Of a DNA stretch of 64,000 nt, positions 3,547-53,811 are shown one piece after another (position 1 is the stretch's first letter; every line of letters starts with the position of its first letter). The DNA lies in NCBI GenBank assembly GCA_902785935.1, contig CADAAN010000006.1, positions 4,309 through 68,308 on the forward strand, read 5' to 3'. Both the position numbers and the translations under genes were made by a program. The stretch comes from an uncultured Pseudomonadota bacterium. Lineage in GTDB: Bacteria; Pseudomonadota; Alphaproteobacteria; RF32; CAG-239. The notes below the pieces were generated by a model. The model made no database searches, was not told the origin of the DNA, and saw only the letters and a program-made list of their open reading frames with translations.

Positions 3547-4768
3547 AGGTGTTTTCCATTTGTTGTAAAATATCTGATAGTTTATACTTATCTTTAATAC
3601 CTTGTGCAATATGTACATTTGGTTCTGACAAACTTTTTTGTACAGCATAGACACCATTTTCTACGATTTCTGTGTCTGTATGACCATCGAATGGTATACC
3701 TAAATACTGTTCATTCATACACATTATCTCAGGACAGCCTCCACGAAAAAGATAAACGATATTTTTTCCGCTTAGACATGCTTCTATAAGTGCCCCTGGA
3801 AAGTTATCGTGCCTATATGTAAACAAAAAGGTATCGCACGCACTATATATAAATTTCAAATCCCCATAATTAAAATAACCGCATATATGGATATTGGAAC
3901 TATATTGTTTTGAAATCATCGCATTAAGTGCTTTTAATGAATATTTCTGGTTTAATGTCAATGAATTTCCATTTATTTCATAATGACCAAAAAAATAAAA
4001 ATGAACATTCTTATTTTTTGAAATAATTTTTTTTGCTATTTTAATAGCCAAATCAGTTCCTTTTCTGTATTCTAGGCTTCCAATAACGAATATATTTGTA
4101 TCTTTTTCATTTATTTTGTGATTTTTTATGTGTTGATTATAAAATGCGCAGGCCTTTTTTCTTGATATCAAAGAAGTATCTTCAAAATGATTGTTAATAA
4201 AGTTGGGTATAATGCATACAGGAATCGATGCTATTTCTTTTATAAGATTTCTGGTAAAATTATATACGTAATTAGTAGGTGCAGAAAGTATATCTGAATA
4301 TATAAGCTCTTTATGCTCTCTCTGAATTTGTAACTGTTCTTCTGCTGAAAAAGTTGGATGTAATTGTTTTGTTAATTCCAATATACTATGTAGTCTCGTT
4401 ATTTTTAAAACGTTAGTATTGTGTACATGACTGTATAGATTTGATAATATGCCCTCCCAATCCGGAGCTTCAATAATTAGTTTGTTGTGCGGGTTTGAAG
4501 TAACTAGTTTTACTATTTTTTCTGCTGCATGTTCAATTTTGAGAATTAGATTAGGTTTAGGTATGTAAAGTATACGGCAATTTCCTTCCCTAACCGAAAT
4601 AAAACGATTTGTTGGAGATTCAGTCAGCCATATCATATGCACATTTGGCCTGTTTTGTTGGAAAGCTTGATATAAAAGCCCTAAATATGTACCTATACCG
4701 CCTTTAACAAGAAGTCTGTGATCCTCAGTCGATACGATTAAATAAAATAAGCTAGATAAATTGTTCAT
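3530..4768 (-). CDS. Glycosyltransferase family 1 (GT4-like)
   Basis: N-terminal GGIGTY motif; C-terminal NFPGALIEACLSGKNIV typical of the GT1 EX7E region; GGAG ribosome binding site upstream. Confidence 0.55.
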   Translation of the reverse strand: MNNLSSLFYLIVSTEDHRLLVKGGIGTYLGLLYQAFQQNRPNVHMIWLTESPTNRFISVREGNCRILYIPKPNLILKIEHAAEKIVKLVTSNPHNKLIIEAPDWEGILSNLYSHVHNTNVLKITRLHSILELTKQLHPTFSAEEQLQIQREHKELIYSDILSAPTNYVYNFTRNLIKEIASIPVCIIPNFINNHFEDTSLISRKKACAFYNQHIKNHKINEKDTNIFVIGSLEYRKGTDLAIKIAKKIISKNKNVHFYFFGHYEINGNSLTLNQKYSLKALNAMISKQYSSNIHICGYFNYGDLKFIYSACDTFLFTYRHDNFPGALIEACLSGKNIVYLFRGGCPEIMCMNEQYLGIPFDGHTDTEIVENGVYAVQKSLSEPNVHIAQGIKDKYKLSDILQQMENTYVFKQ

Positions 4769-9997: not shown

Positions 9998-12169
9998 TTA
10001 TGCAGCTTTGGAAAGCTCTGATAAAACATCCTTTTTCAAGGTGACGTTATCAACCTTTCCGGTTGCGGACATCGGGATTTTATCCCGATAAATTATCTGG
10101 CGCGGCAGATAAAGCTCAGGATAGCCGTTTTGCTTGATAAATTCACGCAACATTTCGGTATTAAGCGTTTTTTCGTTGGTTACAACAACAATTTGCTCAC
10201 CTTTCTGTTCATGCGGTACGGCTACGACACCACAGCAAAAATCATCTCTACCGGAAAAAGCGCTGTTAATCATATTTTCAACCGCTTTTAATGAAATCAT
10301 CTCACCGCCGACCTTGGCAAAACGTTTGATACGGTCTTTGATCGTGATAAATCCGATTTCATCAATCTCAACAACATCACCTGTGTGATACCAACCGTTG
10401 TGCGGCGGTACCAAAACCCCCGGATTGTCGGCAAAAATATAACCCTTCATCACATTCGGCCCCTTGACCACAAGCTCACCGCCGCGTTCAATACCGTCTA
10501 CTTTTTCAAGACGACATTCCATTCCCGGACAGAGTTTGCCGATGGTGCCGAATTTATTAAATACCATGTTGTTGCCTGCAACAGCCGGAGAACATTCCGT
10601 CGTGCCATAGGCTTCCATCAGACGTGTGCCCAATCGCTCATTTAATAAATTGCGTGTATCAAGCTTGACGCCTTCTGCTCCCGCATAAACAAGCCTTAAT
10701 GACCCGAAATCAAGCGGATGCGAAATTTTGGCATAGCTTCTGAAGAATGTATCCGTACCAATCATCACTGTTGCACTTAATTCATAAAGCAAATCCGAAA
10801 TGACGCGAAAATGGAGCGGAGAGGGGTACAAAAAGACTTTTGCACCTTGATAAAGAGCATAAAGTGTGCCTAATACAAGCCCGAAACTGTGGAAAATCGG
10901 CATTGAATTTAAGACAATATCACGCTTGTTTAAGGTTTCAAAAGTCGCAATTTGCCATACGTTTGAAATCACGTTTTGATTTGACAATACAACGGCTTTC
11001 GGTGCACCTTCCGAGCCTGAGGTAAACAAAATAACGGCTGCATCGTCAGGGGTTGCTTTATATGGCACATATTTGACTTTGTATTGCAATAAGGCCAAAA
11101 TTTTTGCAAAAATCGAAACAGACCGTCCGACTTCTTCTAAAAAAATCACCTCAAATCCGGCATTTGTAATCGCTTCAGCCAGCGGTTCTAATCCCGCTTT
11201 TTTGATAAACATTTTTGATGTAATCACTTTTTTTGCCTGAACGGTTTTAAGCCCGCTTATTACATTCTGTGCACCGGCAGAAAAGTTAATCATGACAGGC
11301 ACTTGTCCATAGGCATTTAAGCCGAAAAATGTGCATATAGCCGCAACGGAATTCGGAAGCATCACGGCAACCGGCTCTTTCTTGTCCGAAATGAGAGAAA
11401 AATGACGCCCCAAAACATACGATGCAAGCATAATATCCTTAAAAGTTTTGGGTTTGCGCGTAATATCTTCCAAAACGTATGGACGACGCAGGCCAAAGCA
11501 TCTCTTTGCATGAATTTTTGAGGCTTTAATCAATTGTGTAAAGACCGTCATTTTTTTATCATAAATCGATTCAAACATTTGCTCACGCATAATCATGTAA
11601 ATTTCATTTGAAATGTGATTACGTTGATGCCTGAGCTCTGCCTTAAGCTTTAAGGGACGGGGTGCGTCAACAACAATTTTGACATGCGGAAAATAACGAT
11701 GCGGTAATTTTCCGCCTGTTTTTGAAAAATGGCAATACTGCAAGCCGTTAATCCAAATCGGTATGACGGGCGAATCCGTTTTATCGGCAAGAAGCCCCGC
11801 TGATTCATAAATCTTCATAATATTACCGTTGGTTGTCATACGTCCTTCCGGAAAAATGACGCAAAGGCGGCCGGAATTAACCGTTGAAATCAAATGCTTT
11901 AAGTCCGGTACGTCAATATTGTCATGTTTGACAACATCAGCCGTTTTTAAAAACAAACGTACCCAATAGTTGCGATAGAGTTGCCCGTGCAATGCAAAAA
12001 CCGGATTGCCGGGTAAAAACGCAAAAAGCACAATCGGATCAACCCATGATACGTGGTTTGAAATATATACGCCCTTTTTGGGAAGTTTATCAACGTCAAA
12101 ACGCATTTCAAAACGAACCTTAAAGGTCTTAAAAAAACATCTTAAAAGAAAGCGAACAATATCGCGCAT
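9998..12169 (-). CDS. aas: Bifunctional 2-acylglycerophosphoethanolamine acyltransferase / acyl-ACP synthetase
   Basis: N-terminal PlsC-type acyltransferase HxxxxD motif (NHVSWVDP); C-terminal AMP-binding motifs FTSGSEGAPKAVVLS and YGTTE; 723 aa. Confidence 0.85.
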   Translation of the reverse strand: MRDIVRFLLRCFFKTFKVRFEMRFDVDKLPKKGVYISNHVSWVDPIVLFAFLPGNPVFALHGQLYRNYWVRLFLKTADVVKHDNIDVPDLKHLISTVNSGRLCVIFPEGRMTTNGNIMKIYESAGLLADKTDSPVIPIWINGLQYCHFSKTGGKLPHRYFPHVKIVVDAPRPLKLKAELRHQRNHISNEIYMIMREQMFESIYDKKMTVFTQLIKASKIHAKRCFGLRRPYVLEDITRKPKTFKDIMLASYVLGRHFSLISDKKEPVAVMLPNSVAAICTFFGLNAYGQVPVMINFSAGAQNVISGLKTVQAKKVITSKMFIKKAGLEPLAEAITNAGFEVIFLEEVGRSVSIFAKILALLQYKVKYVPYKATPDDAAVILFTSGSEGAPKAVVLSNQNVISNVWQIATFETLNKRDIVLNSMPIFHSFGLVLGTLYALYQGAKVFLYPSPLHFRVISDLLYELSATVMIGTDTFFRSYAKISHPLDFGSLRLVYAGAEGVKLDTRNLLNERLGTRLMEAYGTTECSPAVAGNNMVFNKFGTIGKLCPGMECRLEKVDGIERGGELVVKGPNVMKGYIFADNPGVLVPPHNGWYHTGDVVEIDEIGFITIKDRIKRFAKVGGEMISLKAVENMINSAFSGRDDFCCGVVAVPHEQKGEQIVVVTNEKTLNTEMLREFIKQNGYPELYLPRQIIYRDKIPMSATGKVDNVTLKKDVLSELSKAA

Positions 12170-16038: not shown

Positions 16039-16067
16039 TTGACTTTTATTTTAAAGTATGCCATAAT
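16039..16067 (+). promoter_or_regulatory. Sigma70-like promoter for leader A4 (TTGACT, 17-nt spacer, CATAAT)
   Basis: Consensus -35/-10 with 17-nt spacing immediately 5' of the conserved leader start gtaacc. Confidence 0.5.
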
Positions 16068-16074
16068 CAAAAGC

Positions 16075-16265
16075 GTAACCAAAATGGTTATGGTGTTTAG
16101 ATAACACATTCGAGTTAAGGCTCCTTTGAAAGAGGAGTTGTTGATATAAGGCAATTTTTGCTCGAATAAGACAAACTGTAACTCGACAGTTATCTAGCTC
16201 CTCCATTTTGAGATTTTTCAAGATGGATTTTTTTTTCGATGGTTTAAAAAATAAGGAGAAAAAAT
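16075..16265 (+). ncRNA. Conserved structured 5' leader, family A (copy A4), ending in an intrinsic terminator; candidate riboswitch/attenuator
   Basis: Shares with three other loci: the aacca-aaa-tggtt hairpin, a ctcct-loop-gaggag hairpin, gatataagg, cgaataag and agctcctcc motifs, then a terminator (ccattttga/tcaagatgg plus T9) before the ribosome binding site. Confidence 0.6.
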
Positions 16266-17324
16266 ATGAAGAAATATGTTTGGGTTTTTGGACTTATTTT
16301 AAGTTATAATGCACAAGCTTATGATTATAATGATTGTTTTGGTGCAAGCGGATGTCAGCCCTGTCCGAATAGTACGGACGGCAAATGTTTTTATGCTGTT
16401 GAAGGCAGCAAAATGACAATTTATGGCCCGACATCAACCGAACAAAATGCAGATGGCAGCTTAAAAGAAACAACATCGATTCCGCGTTATGCCTTTACCA
16501 ACAGCGATAATGCCAGCAATTTGCCGGAAAATATCACTTCTCTTGAAATAACAGGTAATATCACAACCGTTGAAGGTTATGCTTTTTGCTCTGCCCCTCT
16601 GACAAATGTACAATTTCCTGAGACACTTGAAACAATATCGGAATTGGCTTTTTGGAACAATAATTTATCACAAATCAATTTTCCTAATTCGCTTAAAAAT
16701 ATAGAAGAAGGTGCTTTTAATTGGAATCCATTTTCAGAAATTAATTTACCCGACGGATTAATGACGCTGGAGGGGTTAACAGGTGTTCCCCTGGGGCATG
16801 TTGTTATTCCGGATTCGATTGCAGAGGTTAAAGATGCGATTTTTTCTTCAAACTATCGTTTGCAATCATTGGTTGTCGGCGCAGACACAATGCTTGGCAA
16901 TATTTTTACCTACACAACAGGGGCTGTTAGTGTGCAATTTGATAAATTCAAGATGTTTTGCGCAGAAAATAACGGCTCATGCACAACAGCTTTGCAAAGT
17001 GCCGGTGCAACACAAGAACAAATTGCGCAAATACTGATAAGTTATACAAAAGATGACGCAACAGGCGTTTATCAAACAAGTGACGGAAAATATTATGCCG
17101 ATGTCAATTTGATGGCAAGACAAATGGCTTGCGAAAATAAGCAAAGCTGTGAAATTGCCAGTGCTGATATTCGGGCAGGTCGTCCTTTTGATATGAAAGG
17201 AAAATCTTACGCATCTGTCGATGATTTCATTCAAGGAAAATATATTCCAAAGCGTATCTATACCATCGATGAAGCCAATCATGTCGCGGGCAAGACAAAC
17301 ACTTTTACGATTCGGTATCGATAG
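16266..17324 (+). CDS. Secreted BspA-type leucine-rich-repeat protein, paralog 1, with the family-specific conserved C-terminal domain
   Basis: Signal peptide MKKYVWVFGLILSYNAQA; repeated LxxIxxxAFxxC/N units; C-terminus PKRIYTIDEANHVAGKTNTFTIRYR shared by 5 paralogs. Confidence 0.7.
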   Translation: MKKYVWVFGLILSYNAQAYDYNDCFGASGCQPCPNSTDGKCFYAVEGSKMTIYGPTSTEQNADGSLKETTSIPRYAFTNSDNASNLPENITSLEITGNITTVEGYAFCSAPLTNVQFPETLETISELAFWNNNLSQINFPNSLKNIEEGAFNWNPFSEINLPDGLMTLEGLTGVPLGHVVIPDSIAEVKDAIFSSNYRLQSLVVGADTMLGNIFTYTTGAVSVQFDKFKMFCAENNGSCTTALQSAGATQEQIAQILISYTKDDATGVYQTSDGKYYADVNLMARQMACENKQSCEIASADIRAGRPFDMKGKSYASVDDFIQGKYIPKRIYTIDEANHVAGKTNTFTIRYR

Positions 17325-18404: not shown

Positions 18405-20579
18405 TTGAAAAACTTTGTGAGATTTTGTCTGCGTACGTTCTTTTATATCTTCAAGGTCAGATGCAACATCAAGTTTGACTTGAAGAAATTGCCTAAAAAA
18501 GGTGTTTATGTTTCAAACCACGTGTCTTATTTAGACCCGATTTTGCTCTTTGCCTTTTTGCCGGGCAATCCGATTTTTGCCTTAAACGGGCATTTGTATC
18601 GTCGAAGATTTATCCGTTTTTTGATGAAAACGGCTGATATTGTGGAATTTAATCCGATTGAACCGTCTGATTTGAAGGATTTAATCAATAAGGTGAACGA
18701 TAATCGTCTTGTGGTGATTTTTGCCGAAGGACGTATCACCGAAAGCGGCGGCTTGATGAAGATTTATGAGGCGCCGGGGCTTTTGGCGGACAAAACCAAT
18801 GCACCGATTATCCCGATTTGGATTGAAGGTCCGCAATATGGTTATTTTTCAAAGACAAAAGATAAATTGCCCCACAGACCGCTTCCTAAAATGCTGATTA
18901 CGGTCGGCAATCCGAAACCCTTAAAGCTTAAAGATGAGCTTCGTCGTCAGCGTGACCACTTAAGCAATGAAGTGTATCATATTTTGACGGATATGCAGTT
19001 TTCAATTACCTACAATCCGAATATTTCGATTTTTGCACAGCTTGTCAAAACATCTAAAGTATATTCAAAAACGGGCTTTTTCTTTAAACGTCCGATGGTG
19101 ATTGAAGATATTAACCGCAAACCGATGAGCTATAAGGATTTGTTGCTCCGTGTTTATTTACTCGGTAAGTTTTTTAAGAAAAAAGCCGCGCATATGGAGC
19201 ATGTCGGCTTGATGTTGCCGAATACAATCGCGGCTGCGGCAACGTTTTTGGGGTTATCCGCGTATGAGCGAATCCCTGTCATGCTGAACTTTTCAGTAGG
19301 TGCCAAAAACCTGATTTCAATGTGCAAAACAGCGGAAGTAAAGCTTGTGATTACGTCAATCGCCTTTATTAAAACGGCAAAAATGGAGCCGGTGATTGAA
19401 GTCTTAAAATCAAATGGTATCGAGGTCTTTTATCTTGAAAGTTTGGCTAAAAAATTAGGGATTATCAGCAAATTGGGTGCCATGCTTCGTTATAAAACAA
19501 AGCGTATCCCGCACCGTCACGGCGGCAACAGAAAAGCGGCTATTTTATTTACGTCAGGCTCTGAAGGTGCTCCGAAGGCCGTTGTTTTAAGCCATGCCAA
19601 CATTATCTCTAACATCAAACAAGTTACAACGGTCGAAACAATCAATATGAAGGATTTGGTCTTTAATGCCATGCCGATGTTCCACAGCTTCGGACTGACA
19701 ATCGGTACATTGTTCCCGCTTTTAGAGGGGGGCAGGGTGTTTTTGTATCCTTCGCCGTTGCATTATCGCGTGATTGCTGAATTGATTTATGAGCTGGGTG
19801 CGACAATTTTGTTCGGGACAGATACCTTTTTCAGAGGTTATGGACGAATCGCGCATCCGTACGATTTTTATAACGTTCGGTTTATGTATGCCGGTGCTGA
19901 GGCTGTTAAACTTGATACGCGTAATTTGTTTATGGAGCGGATGGGCGTGCGCATTATGGAAGCATACGGTGTGACGGAATGTGCGCCGTTTGTGGCAGCC
20001 AACAATCACGTTTACAGTCGATTCGGCTCAATCGGCAAAATTGTGCCGGGGATTGAGTATAAGTTAGAGCCTGTGCCCGGGATTGAAAAAGGCGGAGAGC
20101 TTGTCGTTAAAGGTCCGAATATTATGATGGGCTATATCATGCCTGATAAACCCGGGGTTTTGGTACCCTTAAAAGACGGCTGGTATCATACGGGTGATGT
20201 GGTTGAAATTGATGAAATCGGCTATGTCTTTATCAAAGACCGCATCAAACGCTTTGCTAAAATCGGCGGTGAGATGGTGTCCTTAAATGCCGTACAGGAT
20301 ATGGTTATCAAGGCTTATGAATGGATGGGGCCTGACTTTAGTTATGGTATTGTTTCCGTACCGCATGAAAGCAAGGGTGAGCAAATCGTCTTGGTCACGA
20401 ACAACAATCAGGTCAAACAGGAAGTTTTGCATGACTATATCAAAAACAATGGTATGTCTGAGCTGTTTTTGCCTCGAACCATCCTGTATCATGAAAAAAT
20501 TCCGGCCTTTTTGACAGGTAAAACCGATAACGTTACCTTGAAAAAAGAAGTGATGGAAGAATTGGGCTTAAATAAATAA
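18405..20579 (+). CDS. aas: Bifunctional acyltransferase / acyl-ACP synthetase, second paralog
   Basis: Same domain architecture as 9998..12169 (NHVSYLDP; FTSGSEGAPKAVVLS), about 55% identical; TTG start with GGAG ribosome binding site. Confidence 0.85.
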   Translation: MKNFVRFCLRTFFYIFKVRCNIKFDLKKLPKKGVYVSNHVSYLDPILLFAFLPGNPIFALNGHLYRRRFIRFLMKTADIVEFNPIEPSDLKDLINKVNDNRLVVIFAEGRITESGGLMKIYEAPGLLADKTNAPIIPIWIEGPQYGYFSKTKDKLPHRPLPKMLITVGNPKPLKLKDELRRQRDHLSNEVYHILTDMQFSITYNPNISIFAQLVKTSKVYSKTGFFFKRPMVIEDINRKPMSYKDLLLRVYLLGKFFKKKAAHMEHVGLMLPNTIAAAATFLGLSAYERIPVMLNFSVGAKNLISMCKTAEVKLVITSIAFIKTAKMEPVIEVLKSNGIEVFYLESLAKKLGIISKLGAMLRYKTKRIPHRHGGNRKAAILFTSGSEGAPKAVVLSHANIISNIKQVTTVETINMKDLVFNAMPMFHSFGLTIGTLFPLLEGGRVFLYPSPLHYRVIAELIYELGATILFGTDTFFRGYGRIAHPYDFYNVRFMYAGAEAVKLDTRNLFMERMGVRIMEAYGVTECAPFVAANNHVYSRFGSIGKIVPGIEYKLEPVPGIEKGGELVVKGPNIMMGYIMPDKPGVLVPLKDGWYHTGDVVEIDEIGYVFIKDRIKRFAKIGGEMVSLNAVQDMVIKAYEWMGPDFSYGIVSVPHESKGEQIVLVTNNNQVKQEVLHDYIKNNGMSELFLPRTILYHEKIPAFLTGKTDNVTLKKEVMEELGLNK

Positions 20580-20593
20580 GCCCAACCTGCTTT

Positions 20594-21493
20594 TTATCTG
20601 TACCTGATTTTGACCGAATTGACTTTGCCTGCGATGGCATTTGCTTCATCGATGGTGTAGATACGCTTTGGGATATAATCTCCTTTTTGCATCGCGGAAA
20701 TTGAGGCATAAGTTTTCTCACCGATACGATATTTCCCGTCAGGTGTCTTAGAATAATGAATAATTTTCGGGTTTTTACCCGTTTGAAGCGCTATTCTTGA
20801 ACATACCTCTTCGGAAGCCGCACAATATAGTTTTTGAAGGTTTGTGTTTGTAAAAGCTTCATCATCAATATTTGTCACACTATTCGGAATAACAAGTGTT
20901 TCAAGTGTTGAAATATCAGCAAGAGACGTCCAACCGATTGAGGTTACACCTTCAGGGATTTCCAGATTTTTAAGTTTTGTTCCGACAAAAGCTCTATCAG
21001 GAATTTCTGTTTGAGCCTGCCCAAGCATCAAATAATCTATTTTTGTTGCCGCAAAACTCCAAGCACCGACATATTGAAGATTTAGAGGTGTATTAATTTC
21101 TTTTAATAAATCTGCACCCTGAAATGCAGCACCGCCAATTTGTTCAATAGAATCCGGCAAATCAATACTGCTGATTTTTGTATAAGCAAGTGTATAACTA
21201 CCGATATTGGTTAAAGAATCCGGCAATGAGACACTTCGAATAGTTTCAAGTTTTTCAACCCATGGTGTTCCCGGCCTTTGGTTTTTAGAATCCCATTCGT
21301 AATTTGTCATTTTTCCGACAGGTGCATTTTCATCTTTGGCTTCAATTGAAAAAAGACCTGTCTGCTCATTTAGTCTGGCAAGGCAATTAGCGCCGCAATC
21401 CCAACAATTGATGTTTAAATCATCACCGCAAGTATTGACTGCTTTAGCTTGAGAGCTCATTGTCAGTAAAAAAAATAAAATCCATTTTCTCAT
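20594..21493 (-). CDS. Secreted BspA-type LRR protein, paralog 2
   Basis: Signal peptide MRKWILFFLLTMSSQAKA; LRR units; C-terminus PKRIYTIDEANAIAGKVNSVKIRYR. Confidence 0.7.
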   Translation of the reverse strand: MRKWILFFLLTMSSQAKAVNTCGDDLNINCWDCGANCLARLNEQTGLFSIEAKDENAPVGKMTNYEWDSKNQRPGTPWVEKLETIRSVSLPDSLTNIGSYTLAYTKISSIDLPDSIEQIGGAAFQGADLLKEINTPLNLQYVGAWSFAATKIDYLMLGQAQTEIPDRAFVGTKLKNLEIPEGVTSIGWTSLADISTLETLVIPNSVTNIDDEAFTNTNLQKLYCAASEEVCSRIALQTGKNPKIIHYSKTPDGKYRIGEKTYASISAMQKGDYIPKRIYTIDEANAIAGKVNSVKIRYR

Positions 21494-21676
21494 ATTTTTT
21501 CTCCATTATGCAAAATAAAAAACCGTTTAAGATAAACCAAAAACGGAGGAGCTAAACGAACTGCACTAAATCAGTTAAGCTTATTCGAGGTATTAACCCT
21601 TATATCACTTACTCCTCTCTAAAGGAGTATATTTTTAGTGCAAGTGTCGTTTAAACACCGCAACCATTTTGGTTAC
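21494..21676 (-). ncRNA. Conserved structured 5' leader, family A (copy A1), with intrinsic terminator (ccgttt/aaacgg plus T-run) before the ribosome binding site
   Basis: Promoter TTGACA-17-TTAAAT at about 21680-21712 (minus strand); conserved motifs as in A2-A4. Confidence 0.6.
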
Positions 21677-21846
21677 GCTTTCATTTAAGCATATATCAAA
21701 ATACTTGTCAAGATGTTTTTAGCCTCTGTCACAATCGGCAACAAAATGTGCATTGATAATTGGGGCTAACGCGGCAATATCAGTTGATATATCTGAAAAT
21801 CATTTTATAATCAGCGTATGTTTTTGAACTTTGGAGAACTTTAAAT

Positions 21847-40815: not shown

Positions 40816-41673
40816 TTAGCGATACCGAATCGAAAAAGTGTTTGTCTTGCCTGCAACTTGATTGGCCTCATCGATGGTGTAAATGCGCTTTGGTGCGTAA
40901 TGTTGATTGTAAATATCATTTGGGGAACTGTAAAACCTTCCGTTATAATAATAACCTGTTGAGTATTTTTGATAAAATTTAATTTTATCGCCAATTTCTT
41001 CATCGTCTAAAAGAGCCTGACAACTGGCATTTGTGTCTTCGCAATAAATAGCCAAAGATTCTGACAATGCTTTATTTATGGAATTAGTAAGCATTTTTTT
41101 TGTAATCATGGTCGAACCGGATATGGTTAAAGATTTCAATTCCGTGCCGCCTAATGTCCAATCTTCATCTTCAAGAATAACATCTTTGGGTAATACAATA
41201 TCTTCAACTTTTGTACGATTAAAATTAGCCCCTCCGATAAAAGTCAGACTATTTGGTAAATTAATTTTTTCAAGTGATTGAGTATCATTAAAAGCACCAC
41301 CCGAAATCTTTTGAAGTCCTTCGGGTAAAACAGCCTCTCGCAAATCAAACAAATATTCAAAAGCAGAAGAACCAATTGATTTAAATATTTTATCACTTGA
41401 TTCGTTTTCGATAACGACTTTATAAATTTGTGAAGAATAGGCTCCCCAATCGGCTGTATTATGGCACCATGGGTCACAGCTGTGACTATAATTTTTCATA
41501 TCACCATAACCTTTAATGGTTAATGTATTCGTGTTTTTATCAAGTGTTGCTGTACAACTATCATTTGAGGTTGCCGCACAGTCAAATGTACAAATATCAC
41601 TGTTATCACAAAGTGTATCAGCATATGTATTAAAAGCCGTAAATATACAAAAAATATAAATTACTTTTCTCAT
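40816..41673 (-). CDS. Secreted BspA-type LRR protein, paralog 4
   Basis: Signal peptide MRKVIYIFCIFTAFNTYA; C-terminus PKRIYTIDEANQVAGKTNTFSIRYR. The longer ORF (to 41874) reads through the family-B leader and is rejected. Confidence 0.7.
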   Translation of the reverse strand: MRKVIYIFCIFTAFNTYADTLCDNSDICTFDCAATSNDSCTATLDKNTNTLTIKGYGDMKNYSHSCDPWCHNTADWGAYSSQIYKVVIENESSDKIFKSIGSSAFEYLFDLREAVLPEGLQKISGGAFNDTQSLEKINLPNSLTFIGGANFNRTKVEDIVLPKDVILEDEDWTLGGTELKSLTISGSTMITKKMLTNSINKALSESLAIYCEDTNASCQALLDDEEIGDKIKFYQKYSTGYYYNGRFYSSPNDIYNQHYAPKRIYTIDEANQVAGKTNTFSIRYR

Positions 41674-41676
41674 ATC

Positions 41677-41950
41677 TTTTCTCCAAAATTTATTAAACGA
41701 AAAAACCACTCTAAAATGAGCGGCGGGGAGTAAAAGAATCATGTAATGGAAAATGACTTCCGTAACCTTTAGGTCAAAACCTTGAACATACGCCACGGAC
41801 TCCCCAACCAAAATATCGGGGATAAGCATTGTTTTAAAATAAAAAAACAACACTAAAACAGCGTTATCTCTCACTGTCCATTACAAAAGCTCTTTTAAAG
41901 CCCCGCACCCTTTTCGGGTACTTGATAGAAAAAGCCAAAACCTTCCTATC
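41677..41950 (-). ncRNA. Conserved structured 5' leader, family B (copy B2), with terminator ccgctc/gagtgg plus T6
   Basis: Promoter TTGACA-16-TAATAAT at about 41958-41987; conserved blocks as in B1/B3. Confidence 0.6.
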
Positions 41951-42024
41951 TGATTTATATTATTACATATCAAAAACATCTTGTCAAGAAATTTTAAAAT
42001 ATTTTAATACGTGATTTGGCTGTG

Positions 42025-42981: not shown

Positions 42982-43057
42982 TGGCAGGGGCGGCAGGACT
43001 TGAACCCACGACACTCGGTTTTGGAGACCGATGTTCTACCAACTGAACTACGCCCCT
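42982..43057 (-). tRNA. trnW: tRNA-Trp (anticodon CCA)
   Basis: 76 nt, aggggcg/cgcccct acceptor stem, anticodon loop cuCCAaa, T-loop gttcaag, encoded CCA end. Confidence 0.9.
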
Positions 43058-45086: not shown

Positions 45087-45986
45087 TTATCGATACCTTA
45101 TTTTGAAAGAATTAACCTTGCCCGCGACGGCATTCGCCTCGTCGATGGTATAAATGCGGATATCGGCACGAGCAGGAACAGATGGCAAGACAGATGGAGA
45201 AACAGTTCCTGATGCTGAAGCAATTTTTGCTCTGCAAGAAGTCTCCGTTTCGCAACCCTCTTCCGTTCCTCCCAACATCATTTTTGCTGCTGAAGAGTAA
45301 TAATTATCACCAACTTTATATACCCCATCTTCTTTAGTATATTGTTCAATTTTTGACGTCCCATGGCCTTTACAAATATTAACATCTTCGCAAAAAAGTT
45401 TTGTGTTGCTGGCAAACGGAAAGTTAACAATTGTTGTTCCTCTGCTAATAATGACATTGTTCAAGGATTCATTTTGAAAGCTACTTCCAAAAGCATCCTG
45501 ATTAATTTTCGTTACACCGCTTAAATCAATATCATGCAGGTTGGTTGTATATGTAAAAGCGCCACTTCCAATTTCTTTAACTCCTGTAAAATCCACACTC
45601 GACAAAGCAGATCGCGAAAAAGCGGTTCCGCCGATTGATGTAACACCGCTTGCAAAAGCAAGTGAGGTTACACCTTGAGGAAGCATTGATGTCCCATAAG
45701 TGTCATCTGCAAAAGCTGATCTCGGTACTTTGTATGTGAGATTGCCGTTTGAATCTGTTGAAGTAATTGATGACCCCTGAATGGTCATTTTTCCGTTATC
45801 AATAGTGTAGTATGTGAGCATATGAGAGGCATAGCTACTGGCTTGCGACAAACATCCTTCGCCATAAGTTGAAACACAAGCCTGACAAAATGTGTTCCCT
45901 TCAGGGCACTCAATTAAAGCAATGGAAATTTTTGAAAATGAAACTGTTGCTACTAATGCCGAGGTTAAAAAAATATTTCTAGTCAT
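45087..45986 (-). CDS. Secreted LRR-family protein, paralog 5 (shorter, divergent repeats, same C-terminal domain)
   Basis: Signal peptide MTRNIFLTSALVATVSFS; C-terminus IRIYTIDEANAVAGKVNSFKIRYR. Confidence 0.65.
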   Translation of the reverse strand: MTRNIFLTSALVATVSFSKISIALIECPEGNTFCQACVSTYGEGCLSQASSYASHMLTYYTIDNGKMTIQGSSITSTDSNGNLTYKVPRSAFADDTYGTSMLPQGVTSLAFASGVTSIGGTAFSRSALSSVDFTGVKEIGSGAFTYTTNLHDIDLSGVTKINQDAFGSSFQNESLNNVIISRGTTIVNFPFASNTKLFCEDVNICKGHGTSKIEQYTKEDGVYKVGDNYYSSAAKMMLGGTEEGCETETSCRAKIASASGTVSPSVLPSVPARADIRIYTIDEANAVAGKVNSFKIRYR

Positions 45987-46177
45987 AACTTTTCTCCTAT
46001 TTTTCTTATTTACACTGTTGAAAAAATCACTTCAGAAGATATCCGAAGTGGGAGCTAGAAAACTGTATACATTCAGTCAGACTTATTCGACATTTCAAAA
46101 CGCTTATATCATCTACTCCCGGTAAAAGGAGCGATATGTATAAGGTGTTTTCTAGACACCGCAACCATTTTGGTTAC
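45987..46177 (-). ncRNA. Conserved structured 5' leader, family A (copy A2), with terminator cacttc/gaagtg plus T6
   Basis: Promoter TTGACA at about 46206-46211 (minus strand); conserved motifs gtaaccaaaatggttgcggtg, ctcc...ggag, gatataagc, cgaataag, agctccc. Confidence 0.55.
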
Positions 46178-46353
46178 TTTTTTATTTTCACATAAAAAAC
46201 GTAGCTTGTCAAATAAATTTTGTAAAAAATATCTTTTTTTGCTTGAAAAATAAAACTTTAATGATAAATTGTGCTTGAAATTTAAATTAACCCCCGTGCG
46301 GGGAATCCGCACAGCTCTTTTCTTAAGAGTTTACTTTTTTATAAGGATACTAA

Positions 46354-50126: not shown

Positions 50127-50211
50127 GCGGACGTGGCGAAATTGGCAGACGCGCCAGACTTAGGATCTGGTGCCGAAAGGCGTGCGGGTTCAAGTCCCTC
50201 CGTCCGCACCA
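50127..50211 (+). tRNA. tRNA-Leu (anticodon TAG)
   Basis: 85 nt with long variable arm, acceptor gcggacg/cgtccgc, anticodon loop cuUAGga, T-loop gttcaag, CCA encoded. Confidence 0.85.
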
Positions 50212-52252: not shown

Positions 52253-52843
52253 TTAGTAGTCCCCTCTGATTACATGATAAAACCGACAGCTATCTAAACT
52301 TGTTTCACATGCCTGACAGCCCTCAATGATATCAGACATTTTGACCTCCGTAATACCTCCTGTAGGCCAATATATATCCTTACCGCCCACCTCTATCAAT
52401 CCGCCTGTCCACCATTCAACCGGGACGGCATTTTCCCATCCTGCAGAGGCAAAAGCAATACACGATTTTGAATCGGTGAAATGGATAACAAATTCACCCT
52501 GAACATATGAACCACCGCTATCATAAAAATCCATATTCAGCGTTCCTATCGGAAGTTTGCAAGCCTCGTCTCCATTAAGATCCGTTGTTACTTGACAATC
52601 CGGTAAAAGCCCGTATTGAATTAAATCTTCGGCATCACGAATCTCAATACCTTCTCCCCAGCCTTTTTGCTCCAACTCCATAAAGCGTTGAAGAATTTGA
52701 TTATATGTGTCAATTGTTTGATTCATTTTGTATTTAAACATTGCGGCAGAATAACCTTTGAGTGCGCCCGCCGACAACACACCGACAATAGCCAACACGC
52801 CCAGCATTTCAACCATACTTCTACCTATTTCATTAATTTTCAT
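52253..52843 (-). CDS. Type IV pilin-like protein (prepilin-type N-terminus)
   Basis: MKINEIGRS|MVEMLGVLAIVGVLSAGAL: a G, then E at +5, then a hydrophobic helix; preceded by family-A leader copy A3. Confidence 0.6.
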   Translation of the reverse strand: MKINEIGRSMVEMLGVLAIVGVLSAGALKGYSAAMFKYKMNQTIDTYNQILQRFMELEQKGWGEGIEIRDAEDLIQYGLLPDCQVTTDLNGDEACKLPIGTLNMDFYDSGGSYVQGEFVIHFTDSKSCIAFASAGWENAVPVEWWTGGLIEVGGKDIYWPTGGITEVKMSDIIEGCQACETSLDSCRFYHVIRGDY

Positions 52844-53026
52844 TGGTTATACCTTTCTTTCATAAAAAAAATTCCGTTTTATATAACCAAAAACGGAGGA
52901 GCTAACTAACTGCCATTGTACAGCTTGCTTTATTCGCGCATCACTAAAATACCTTATATCAGCAACTCCTCATCAAGGAGCTATACAATGGATGTGTTAG
53001 TTAAACACCGCAACCATTTTGGTTAC
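52844..53026 (-). ncRNA. Conserved structured 5' leader, family A (copy A3), with terminator ccgttt/aaacgg plus T-run
   Basis: Promoter TTGACT-16-AAATAAT at about 53030-53060 (minus strand); conserved motifs as in A1. Confidence 0.6.
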
Positions 53027-53253
53027 ATCCTGATTATTTCATACAAAAGCATAAAAGTCAAATACTTTTTTGTACATACAAAAAAAATAAATTTTTTTTG
53101 TAACAAAGTACTTGCAAAATTAAAAAAAATGTATATCATATAAAAAAGTGATGCAGATGTTTTTGATTTTGTCTGCACTTTGTTTCTCATTTTAACGAAG
53201 ATTTTTTTAGTATTAACAAAAGCTGCAAGGCTTTGCTTTTAGGTGTTTAAGGT

Positions 53254-53811
53254 ATGAAAAAAAACAACAACAACAAATTTCGGAACAATAACAACAATAA
53301 TATGTACAATTTAAACTATCGTTTTGACAGTTTAAGCCCTGCGGGTAAATGTTGCGGAACGGCACTTGATTTGATTAAACGCTACAACGACCTTGCAAAA
53401 GAAGCAGGCCTTGGAGGAAATTATGTTGAGATGGAAGTTTTTCGTCAATATGCCGAACATTATCGTAAAATTGTGACTGAAATCAATGAGCGCAAAAACT
53501 TTAATCAAAATCAACAGCGTCTTAAAAATCAATCTCAAGAGCAAGATTTGCCTGAACAAGAAGCTCAAGAAGATCAAGTTCAATCAGAAGCACAAGAGAC
53601 ATCTGCTGATAATGAACCCTCTCAGGCACCTATTGCCGAGCCCAAAATTTTGGTTGCAAAACCTTTGTCGCTTAAAAAGAAAAAATTTGAAATTGTTGAA
53701 GTCAGCTCTTCTGATTTAGAACAAAAGCAAGAAGAAGCATCGAAGCCGAAGCGCACTGTCAAGCGCAAAGCAAAAAGTACCGAGCAGGCACAGGAAGTTG
53801 CCGCGGTATAA
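53254..53811 (+). CDS. DUF4167-like protein with Asn-rich N-terminus
   Basis: N-rich tract then SPAGKCCGTALDLIKRYNDLAKEA...QYAEHYRK, resembling the alphaproteobacterial DUF4167 family; acidic/Q-rich C-terminus. Confidence 0.45.
   Translation: MKKNNNNKFRNNNNNNMYNLNYRFDSLSPAGKCCGTALDLIKRYNDLAKEAGLGGNYVEMEVFRQYAEHYRKIVTEINERKNFNQNQQRLKNQSQEQDLPEQEAQEDQVQSEAQETSADNEPSQAPIAEPKILVAKPLSLKKKKFEIVEVSSSDLEQKQEEASKPKRTVKRKAKSTEQAQEVAAV

Follow-up and report, generated by a model that had tools for sequence, protein, structure and literature searches.

A 64,000-nucleotide stretch of DNA from an uncultured alphaproteobacterium (GTDB lineage Alphaproteobacteria; RF32; CAG-239), comprising positions 4,309 to 68,308 of the forward strand of contig CADAAN010000006.1 (assembly GCA_902785935.1) and referred to here at its full length as the window, carries four genes that are each preceded by the same arrangement of a promoter-like site, a structured RNA leader and an intrinsic terminator. 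Three of these genes encode Pfam LRR_5 (BspA-type leucine-rich repeat, LRR) proteins with signal peptides, and the fourth encodes a protein with a type IV pilin-like N-terminus (GRSMVEMLGVLAIVGVLS) that itself has no Pfam match; a homolog of this protein within the family has a weak match to N_methyl (E = 0.011), which is below the cutoff. The leader, designated family A, represents an RNA family that had not been described before, from uncultured Alphaproteobacteria of gut and rumen.

Four Copies of One Leader in the Window

An initial annotation, made from the letters of the window, had proposed that four loci have one architecture. The four do align over promoter, leader and terminator, and a covariance model from the family-wide alignment, run unfiltered on both strands of the window, recovers these four copies and no others, on the strands and at the coordinates first noted (112–128 bits, the best remaining match having 16 bits). 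The copies are mutually 67–79% identical, and their differences cluster in helices, where they are compensated. The string GTAACCAAAATGGTT occurs exactly four times in the window, as does GATATAAG-N(8-25)-CGAATAA, for which shuffles give an expectation of 0.01; the gatataag and cgaataag blocks that had been singled out as conserved prove to be the two sides of an internal loop. The elements of the leader are a 5′ hairpin (P0), a long-range helix (P1), an inner long-range helix (P2), a hairpin (P3), a helix (P4) and a small helix (P5), with P2, P3 and P4 meeting in a three-way junction. Their positions in copy 1, and those of the other copies, are as follows.

16039-16067, + strand: copy 1, promoter-like site TTGACT-17-CATAAT with TG before the -10 element, ending 7 nucleotides before G1 of the RNA
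16075-16091, +: P0, the 5′-terminal hairpin GUAACCA-AAA-UGGUUAU; 7 of 7 pairs covary family-wide
16092-16105, +: P1 5′ strand, GGUG + UUUAGAUAAC; 9 of 12 pairs have compensatory changes
16104-16108, +: local ACAC with which GGUGU can alternatively form hairpin A
16110-16116, +: P2 5′ strand, UCGAGUU; 7 of 7 pairs have compensatory changes
16121-16137, +: P3 hairpin, CUCCUUU-GAA-AGAGGAG; its 3′ strand, 16132-16137, is the candidate switching strand
16138-16174, +: P4-P5 arm (P4, UUGUU/GACAA; P5, 16151-16162); all P4 and P5 pairs covary
16143-16150 and 16163-16169, +: internal loop, GAUAUAAG facing CGAAUAA
16176-16178, 16180-16186 and 16187-16189, +: conserved CUG, P2 3′ strand AACUCGA and conserved CAG; CUG and CAG are able to close a local hairpin B
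16189-16201, +: P1 3′ strand, GUUAUCUAGCUCC
16198-16204, +: heptamer CUCCUCC; possible partners are GGUG of the P1 5′ strand, the P3 3′ strand (antiterminator) and, via its last 3 nucleotides, the terminator 3′ strand
16202-16236, +: intrinsic terminator, a stem-loop at 16202-16227 and then a run of nine T
16253-16258, +: Shine-Dalgarno sequence AAGGAG
16266-17324, +: gene for a secreted BspA-type LRR protein
21494-21711, - strand: copy 2, promoter TTGACA-17-TTAAAT at 21711-21683, RNA 21676-21545, terminator about 21546-21517 (112.3 bits)
20594-21493, -: gene downstream of copy 2, LRR_5
45987-46212, -: copy 3, promoter TTGACA-17-GAAAAT at 46212-46184, RNA 46177-46048, terminator 46050-46028 (122.2 bits); heptamer CUCCCAC, P3 3′ strand GGGAG
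45087-45986, -: gene downstream of copy 3, LRR_5
52844-53061, -: copy 4, promoter TTGACT-17-AATAAT at 53061-53033, RNA 53026-52895, terminator about 52897-52864 (121.5 bits)
52253-52843, -: gene downstream of copy 4, type IV pilin-like N-terminus

The initial annotation also gave each locus a promoter, and this holds for copies 1, 3 and 4, at which the scanner calls sigma70-like promoters that have TG before the -10 element and end 7 nucleotides before the first G; the site of copy 2 (TTGACA-17-TTAAAT) was read from the sequence and fails the scanner's promoter rule. Its assignment of a terminator with a T-run to every locus stands: the terminator scan calls those of copies 1 (16202-16227) and 3 (46050-46028), and copies 2 and 4 have stems of 6–8 base pairs with loops longer than the scanner's 8-nucleotide limit, followed by T-runs. 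In the window copies, a Shine-Dalgarno sequence and start codon lie 15–30 nucleotides beyond the T-run. Since the neighboring genes are housekeeping genes (MlaE, an SIS/CBS protein, BipA, GAPDH and DUF4167), each promoter–leader–gene unit stands alone.

A Covarying Fold

RNAalifold, applied to the four window copies, finds far more pairing than the two hairpins from which the leader was first recognized. Both of those are real and correspond to P0 and P3, but P1, P2, P4 and P5 had been missed, and part of P1/P2 had been taken as single-stranded or as a CTG...CAG hairpin. P1 pairs GGUG-UUUAGAUAAC with GUUAUCUAG-CUCC, and P2, which is UCGAGUU/AACUCGA in copy 1, is wholly different yet complementary in the other window copies. 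P4 and P5 flank the near-invariant internal loop, GAnAUAAG facing CGAAUAA, within a single arm. For copy 1 alone, the minimum free energy fold is the covariation-supported structure plus the terminator, with z = -5.39 relative to dinucleotide shuffles.

Covariation was assessed in an alignment of 118 sequences (114 distinct) based on the covariance model; a MAFFT alignment of 43 copies had misplaced P2 and P3. For this fold, which we call Fold I, 96.4% of 4503 cells hold standard pairs, a percentage that is inflated by the fitting of the alignment to the model, although such fitting cannot create hundreds of double changes. Compensatory changes are seen at 36 of the 40 pairs among the 114 distinct sequences, and they include every pair of P0, P2, P4 and P5. 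The covariation score is 0.737, compared with 0.225 ± 0.006 for shuffled alignments (0 of 500 reach 0.737), and it drops to 0.117 or less when partners are slid by 1–3 columns. P0 pairs are 99.1% paired family-wide in hairpins as different as GCAUCCGG-GAGG-CCGGAUGC and GCAGUUCA-GAGA-UGAACUGC.

Set against these variable helices are short blocks that are conserved to at least 97% in the consensus, namely GGnG, CC, GGAG, GAnaUAAG, CGAAUAA, CUG and CUCC. The conserved blocks are invariant or above 90% in 43 copies that were selected by P0 alone and are thus independent of the pattern used in the metagenome scan described below, and they are also present, with the small variants GGAAUAAG/CGAAGAAG, in five copies that were reached by protein homology.

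One further possibility for the 5′ end was dropped. P0 of copy 1 contains an AUG from which a leader peptide (MVMVFR*) could be read. The corresponding short reading frames differ in length from one window copy to the next, several distant P0 variants no longer have the AUG, and we treat the peptide as a coincidence.

Extent of the Family

A single exact-pattern scan of the GTDB species representatives with the P0 sequence returned 39 true copies and five chance matches, and all of the true copies come from three rumen Alphaproteobacteria metagenome-assembled genomes (MAGs) and are preceded by the same TTGAC-N17-nATAAT arrangement. A search model that combined the four window copies with a structure written by hand raises the number in the loci of these three MAGs to 42, of which at least 34 are in MAG RGIG5118 (JAFVFH01); three of the 42 have an altered P0 sequence in which the hairpin is kept. 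A metagenome scan with a P0-independent pattern gave at least 120 loci, in which at least 133 copies were confirmed by the model at 44–128 bits, from rumen and human-gut assemblies with a G+C fraction of up to 0.56. Together the copies, of which at least about 170 lie outside the window, form at least 116 clusters at 93% identity. The covariance model that the initial annotation had proposed thus matches not only the window but also relatives from rumen and human gut, with pairing maintained.

When IMG/VR was scanned with the same DNA pattern, five chance matches were returned and none was confirmed by the covariance model. A phage or mobile origin was rejected given that no confirmed copy was found among the IMG/VR viral contigs; the leader is likewise not a mobile or repeat element of the repetitive extragenic palindromic (REP) or miniature inverted-repeat transposable element (MITE) kind, given this same result, the level of identity between copies and the compensated differences in helices. 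In the 34-copy rumen MAG, several units have an approximately 85-nucleotide GC-rich, imperfectly palindromic insert between the leader terminator and the ribosome-binding site (TTAATATTTGCCACCCC...GGGGAGGATTGAAA..GGGTGAC; L012:1238-1330, L023 (-) at about 3928, L027 (-) at about 4593 and L030 (-) at about 7553); this insert has the look of a small REP/MITE-like element, and none occurs in the window.

The family does not correspond to any class in Rfam 15, as had been suspected from the sequence. At the gathering threshold, the whole window has no match at any leader, its sole matches being two tRNA genes (42985-43057, -, and 50127-50208, +); copy 1 with 150 nucleotides on either side gives sub-threshold noise alone at E ≤ 10; and ten diverse relatives searched at E ≤ 0.1 give just a tRNA and the rpsB sRNA elsewhere in one contig (L066). 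Full-text literature and preprint searches found no description of the leader.

Several human-gut contigs carry tandem arrays of 2–4 complete promoter–RNA–terminator units, spaced by about 255 nucleotides, before one small helix-turn-helix (HTH) gene. They are found in L047 (389-1297, -), L053, L078, L085, L087, L106 and L126, and also in L127 and L131, and units within one array differ in P1 and P2 by compensated changes.

Genes Downstream of the Leader

Among the matches listed, an open reading frame (ORF) is called downstream of 103 of 133 copies, and it is always co-oriented, with a start codon about 25–200 nucleotides, mostly 46–140 nucleotides, past the heptamer; the remaining 30 copies mostly have no downstream sequence or lie inside tandem arrays. 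Again among the matches listed, 47 of the 103 ORFs encode secreted LRR, RHS or MORN-repeat proteins with a common C-terminal RIYTIxEA...(I/L)RY(R/K) motif, three encode pilin-like proteins, and 43 encode small (74–116 amino acids), divergent XRE-type HTH proteins ending in I-E-L-V-D. The HTH genes come mainly from human-gut contigs, and in the MAG with at least 34 units nearly all units precede secreted LRR/repeat or pilin-like proteins. The initial view that the leader occurs only before LRR and pilin-like genes therefore holds within the window but not for the family at large.

The association with HTH genes can also be seen independently of the search pattern: at three loci fetched by protein homology, five of five HTH genes have the RNA ending about 55 nucleotides upstream. 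For the homologues of one such HTH protein, the sole annotations are "unknown [Proteobacteria bacterium CAG:495]" and MAG Alphaproteobacteria. In the window itself, tblastn finds no significant match to the HTH family, and a weak match at 53378-53569 lies in the DUF4167 protein. At L129:9163-10120, L170:2306-3222 and L172:2269-3234, two paralogous small HTH genes follow one another in the same direction, each preceded by a leader of its own. The chromosomal positions of such pairs are conserved; in L129, for example, the pair lies between a DUF1013-like gene and ftsI.

Five secreted proteins of the window have in common the C-terminal motif (K)RIYT(I/V)DEAN.(V/I)AGK.N(T/S)(F/V).IRYR*, encoded at the following sites.

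17235-17321, + strand: C-terminal motif
20597-20683, - strand: C-terminal motif
29410-29490, - strand: C-terminal motif
40819-40899, - strand: C-terminal motif
45090-45176, - strand: C-terminal motif

It is also found in the 47 family downstream proteins elsewhere, whatever their repeat type (LRR_5, RHS or MORN), and it is not covered by any Pfam domain; a function as a sorting or anchoring signal is conceivable. The pilin-like gene at 52253-52843 is one of three paralogs in the window, all on the - strand and with the common N-terminus GRSMVEMLGVLAI(V/I)GVLSAG. It has a family-A leader, the paralog at 60649-61230 has a leader of a different family (family B, below), and the one at 59995-60609 lies directly downstream of the latter. 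The window also holds paralogous genes for 723- and 724-amino-acid acyltransferase + AMP-binding (Aas-like) proteins at 9998-12169 (-) and 18405-20579 (+), about 6 kb apart.

An Alternative Pairing That Cuts into the Terminator

Directly after upper P1 lies a heptamer, CUCC followed by three variable nucleotides, whose sequence tracks that of the P3 3′ strand across lineages.

heptamer CUCCACC: P3 3′ strand GGUGGAG
heptamer CUCCGCC: P3 3′ strand GGCGGAG
heptamer CUCCUUC: P3 3′ strand GAAGGAG
heptamer CUCCCUC: P3 3′ strand GAGGGAG
heptamer CUCCCC(N): P3 3′ strand GGGGAG
heptamer CUCCUC(C/U): P3 3′ strand (G)GAGGAG
heptamer CUCCCAC: P3 3′ strand GGGAG

In an alignment that was not fitted to it, this candidate antiterminator helix is 95.6% paired, and one of its pairs (119-216) is GC in 52 sequences, AU in 42, GU in 8 and UA in 7. 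At the three positions past the invariant GGAG:CUCC, Watson–Crick pairs fill 234 of 342 cells, compared with 143.9 ± 7.4 in 2000 shuffles, of which the maximum is 170. P3 leans on G·U pairs (143 Watson–Crick and 134 G·U), and the long-range helix between the P3 3′ strand and the heptamer is therefore the cleaner of the two.

A terminator stem with a T-run is present in 103 of 106 copies, which together with the compensatory changes in Fold I bears out the early proposal of a structured leader with a terminator as its expression platform. The covariation between terminator stems that was noted among the four window copies says little on its own, though the stems are there. In 85 of the 106 copies the stem starts at position 5 or 6 of the heptamer, so that the antiterminator helix would take away 2–3 terminator base pairs beside the U-tract. 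An antiterminator formed by gaggag and ctcctcc, which had been suggested for the window, is thus upheld across lineages both by its covariation and by its overlap with the terminator base.

The antiterminator topologically crosses P1 and P2. When GGAG:CUCC alone is enforced, ViennaRNA returns a knot-free fold, Fold II, in which the antiterminator encloses P4/P5 and hairpin B; here hairpin A is formed by GGnGU with local ACn′CC, and CUG and CAG close hairpin B around what had been the P2 3′ strand. Hairpin A is supported by a change from GGUGU/ACAC(C) to GGAGU/ACUCC in GC-richer lineages, and its partners also covary where the base of P1 does not (GAUG/CAUC and UGUG/CACA). The base of P1 (GGnG:CnCC) was accordingly rejected as a firm helix: the G30/G31 changes GAUG and UGUG are compensated in the hairpin A partner and not in CUCC, so this segment is better seen as one of several competing pairings. 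Fold I is the stabler of the two folds by a mean of 7.7 kcal/mol (standard deviation 3.9), with Fold II better in 5 of 114 sequences, and termination should therefore be the default outcome.

A different antiterminator, in which P0 (CCAAAAUGG) pairs with the terminator 5′ strand (CCAUUUUGA / CCGUUUUGG), looked convincing in the window lineage. It was rejected on the basis of 52 distinct P0 sequences, for which cognate pairing gives -7.84 kcal/mol and non-cognate pairing -7.23 kcal/mol, the cognate being better in 59%.

A Second Leader in the Same Window

The window contains a second conserved leader, family B, of about 270 nucleotides and 74% mean identity, which has no Rfam match and precedes the secreted-family genes 29407-30540 and 40816-41874 and the pilin-like gene 60649-61230.

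61225-61560, - strand: family B leader
30535-30880, - strand: family B leader
41640-41995, - strand: family B leader

Like family A, it precedes paralogous genes, follows a TTGACA promoter, opens with a 5′ hairpin and, immediately after it, a GGAG...CUC hairpin, and has a CCCC...GGGGAG hairpin complementary to a CUCCCC/CUCUCC segment right before the terminator. It differs in its internal blocks, ACAGUGAnGGAUAACACUGU, CUAAAGGUU, AGUCAUUU and CAUGAUU, and the family-A model sees its 5′ module alone (16 bits, E = 0.036). That the two families have in common just the 5′ tandem hairpins and the P3/heptamer/terminator logic suggests a modular system.

Comparison with Known Regulatory Leaders

Cyclic di-GMP (c-di-GMP)-I and -II riboswitches (GEMM; RF01051 and RF01786), as found for example in Clostridioides difficile and Geobacter, are multi-copy structured 5′ leaders, with up to about 30 per genome, that precede genes for pilins, adhesins and further surface or motility functions and operate via an intrinsic terminator. 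Family A resembles them in being a multi-copy leader of pilin and surface genes with an intrinsic terminator. It differs in having no RF01051 or RF01786 match (copy 1 at E ≤ 10; the window and ten relatives at the gathering threshold or E ≤ 0.1, respectively), in its fold of P0, P1-P2 stack, three-way junction and GAnAUAAG/CGAAUAA loop, and in also preceding small HTH regulators. T-box leaders (RF00230) occur in tens of copies per genome and consist of a long leader and then a terminator, with a weaker antiterminator that needs stabilization by the effector. The combination of many copies, a terminator and a weak antiterminator is common to both; however, family A lacks both a specifier loop and a T-box sequence, RF00230 is not matched by copy 1 even at E ≤ 10, the downstream genes of the family encode surface proteins and HTH regulators rather than aminoacyl-tRNA synthetases or amino-acid functions, and its antiterminator is a long-range helix made with one strand of an internal hairpin, P3.

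A third group comprises protein-dependent antitermination leaders (the ribonucleic antiterminator (RAT) targets of BglG, SacY and LicT, ANTAR targets, the PyrR site RF00515 and the targets of the NusG paralogs LoaP and UpxY), which combine a promoter-proximal RNA element with a leader terminator. The regulator's own gene can follow its target, as with bglG, and Bacteroides surface-structure genes are under control of this kind. Family A has the same promoter-proximal element and terminator, and a regulator-like gene can follow it. PyrR is its best sub-threshold Rfam match, at 21.7 bits against a gathering threshold of 54 (E = 1.1), but the match aligns the P3 hairpin and terminator alone, and the genes downstream of the window copies are LRR and pilin-like rather than pyr genes. 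There is no RAT-like or dual-hexaloop ANTAR architecture, and the structured domain is much larger. Because no covariance model matches at threshold and the architecture differs, we conclude that the leader belongs to none of the c-di-GMP, T-box and RAT/ANTAR/PyrR families.

A Proposed Attenuator and Its Competitors

We propose that the leader is probably a new effector-controlled transcription attenuator, either riboswitch-like or protein-dependent. Each unit would consist of a strong sigma70 promoter, a structured leader of about 130 nucleotides, an intrinsic terminator, a ribosome-binding site and one gene, and the leader would take two mutually exclusive folds. In Fold I, with P0, the P1-P2 stack, the P2/P3/P4 junction and the P4-P5 arm in place, the heptamer CUCCNNN would be free to complete the terminator stem, and transcription would stop before the gene. 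In Fold II, the P3 3′ strand (nnnGGAG) would quit P3 and pair with the heptamer, the terminator would lose its bottom 2–3 base pairs, the released strands would form the local hairpins GGnGU...ACn′CC and CUG...CAG, and RNA polymerase would read through. An effector, which may be a small molecule or an RNA-binding protein, would favor Fold II or block Fold I/P1 and so permit expression; given that Fold I is the thermodynamic default, expression presumably needs such an effector. Three features expected of a terminating riboswitch are present, namely a covarying structured domain, a terminator before a co-oriented gene, and mutually exclusive pairing between domain and terminator.

What the sequences show is the family with its helices, its terminator, the covarying second pairing and the link to downstream genes; that termination is regulated, which way the switch works and what kind of effector acts on it are inferred. 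Several points weigh against this proposal. The leader start site, termination and read-through are all predictions from sequence. Conservation of the blocks in the metagenome copies is partly circular, the pattern used there having demanded GGAG, GAnnTAAG, GAATAA, CT and AGT; independent conservation comes solely from the 46 copies chosen by P0 and the five reached by protein homology. The overlap between antiterminator and terminator is just 2–3 nucleotides, and in a subfamily of 7–8 copies (CUCCUCU-UCCGUUUU) it is 0–1 nucleotide. Because of its deficit in stability, Fold II could not form without help or a kinetic route. Of its two local hairpins, B is supported by one covarying pair (CUG/CAG to CUA/UAG) in two sequences, L019 and L036, and the exchange of U-A for A-U in A may have arisen just once in evolution; moreover, both hairpins might form alongside P1 and P2, as loop-strand pseudoknots, instead of replacing them. 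Finally, tandem arrays of complete units are no less compatible with an RNA acting in trans than with one acting in cis.

Several alternatives can be envisioned for what the leader does. One of two main, narrower versions of the proposed attenuator is a true metabolite or second-messenger riboswitch, in which the three-way-junction domain is the aptamer and a ligand picks between the P3/terminator and antiterminator folds. A complex multi-helix fold in which unpaired nucleotides are at least 97% conserved (GGnG, GGAG, GAnaUAAG, CGAAUAA, CUG, CUCC), an expression platform with covarying alternative pairing, and many copies per genome before functionally related genes, as with c-di-GMP riboswitches, would all be expected of one, and the neighborhoods in the window showed no linked gene for an RNA-binding protein. 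Yet P1 (12 base pairs) and P2 (7 base pairs) are long and stable without ligand, and an advantage of about 8 kcal/mol for Fold I is unusual for a ligand-gated P1, while surface-protein and HTH-regulator genes suggest no metabolite; a riboswitch in the strict sense is thus possible, if on balance doubtful. In the other main version, an RNA-binding protein dedicated to antitermination or termination would recognize the leader, in a manner comparable to the RAT/BglG-LicT, ANTAR, PyrR and NusG-paralog systems, and that protein could be the linked small XRE-type HTH protein, with autoregulation in human-gut lineages and a regulon that then expanded to surface-protein genes in the rumen lineage. This would account for the tight link of the RNA to small HTH genes (43 of 103 ORFs among the matches listed, and five of five independently of the pattern), which in L129, L170 and L172 extends to two consecutive leader–HTH units, and for the lower stability of Fold II, since antiterminators that are stabilized by a factor are weaker than the competing fold; what families A and B have in common would also fit a shared protein-binding module. 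However, XRE-type HTH proteins are DNA binders, for which we know of no precedent in RNA-dependent antitermination, and the loops of P0 and hairpin A vary widely between lineages. Neither the window nor the loci fetched from the 34-copy MAG yielded an HTH family member, and for the MAG this non-detection counts for little because just about 8 kb around each RNA was covered. We regard a dedicated protein target as unlikely on this evidence.

More distant from the proposed attenuator are two readings in which termination is not the point of regulation. The units may be mainly genes for an abundant trans-acting small RNA of about 165 nucleotides, for example a protein or RNA sponge, with downstream expression as incidental read-through. 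Every copy has its own strong promoter and intrinsic terminator, gene-free tandem arrays of 2–4 units occur in several human-gut contigs, and the thermodynamic default is Fold I plus the terminator, all as would be expected of such genes. But outside the arrays a co-oriented ORF is called after 103 of 133 copies among the matches listed, mostly 46–140 nucleotides past the heptamer, the inspected sequences show a Shine-Dalgarno sequence and no second promoter between leader and gene, and a covarying pairing of the P3 3′ strand with the heptamer that cuts into the terminator base would have no obvious use if termination were constitutive. We regard this reading as rather improbable, although the tandem arrays keep it in play. 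Translational control, in which CUCC (resembling an anti-Shine-Dalgarno) and GGAG (resembling a Shine-Dalgarno) sequester or mimic the ribosome-binding site, or in which the structure stabilizes the mRNA 5′ end, draws on the recurrence of GGAG/CUCC in the P1 base, P3 and the heptamer, on the GGAG-like form of the real Shine-Dalgarno sequence, and on the fact that a 5′-terminal hairpin such as P0 is a classic mRNA stabilizer. We consider it very improbable, as the Shine-Dalgarno sequence lies 20–100 nucleotides past a full terminator with a long T-run, and positions 5–7 of the heptamer covary with the P3 3′ strand instead of with a fixed Shine-Dalgarno sequence.

Returning to the effector-controlled attenuator, a bolder form of it can be put forward as a tentative hypothesis, somewhat short of an even prospect: that a new riboswitch class, or an RNA–protein antitermination system with an HTH-fold RNA binder, senses a signal and directly governs most of the secreted and surface proteome (at least 30 genes per genome) together with small XRE-type regulators in RF32/CAG-495-like gut and rumen Alphaproteobacteria, by handing one strand of a junction hairpin to the base of the terminator. 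The existence of two covariation-supported folds makes the hypothesis directly testable with few mutants. If confirmed, the leader would define an orphan class of regulatory RNA, with very strong comparative evidence behind it and a regulon of unusual size and coherence. Its effector could add either a new riboswitch ligand or a new type of RNA-binding antiterminator, and the identity of that effector would reveal how widespread, uncultured gut Alphaproteobacteria time the display of their surface proteins.

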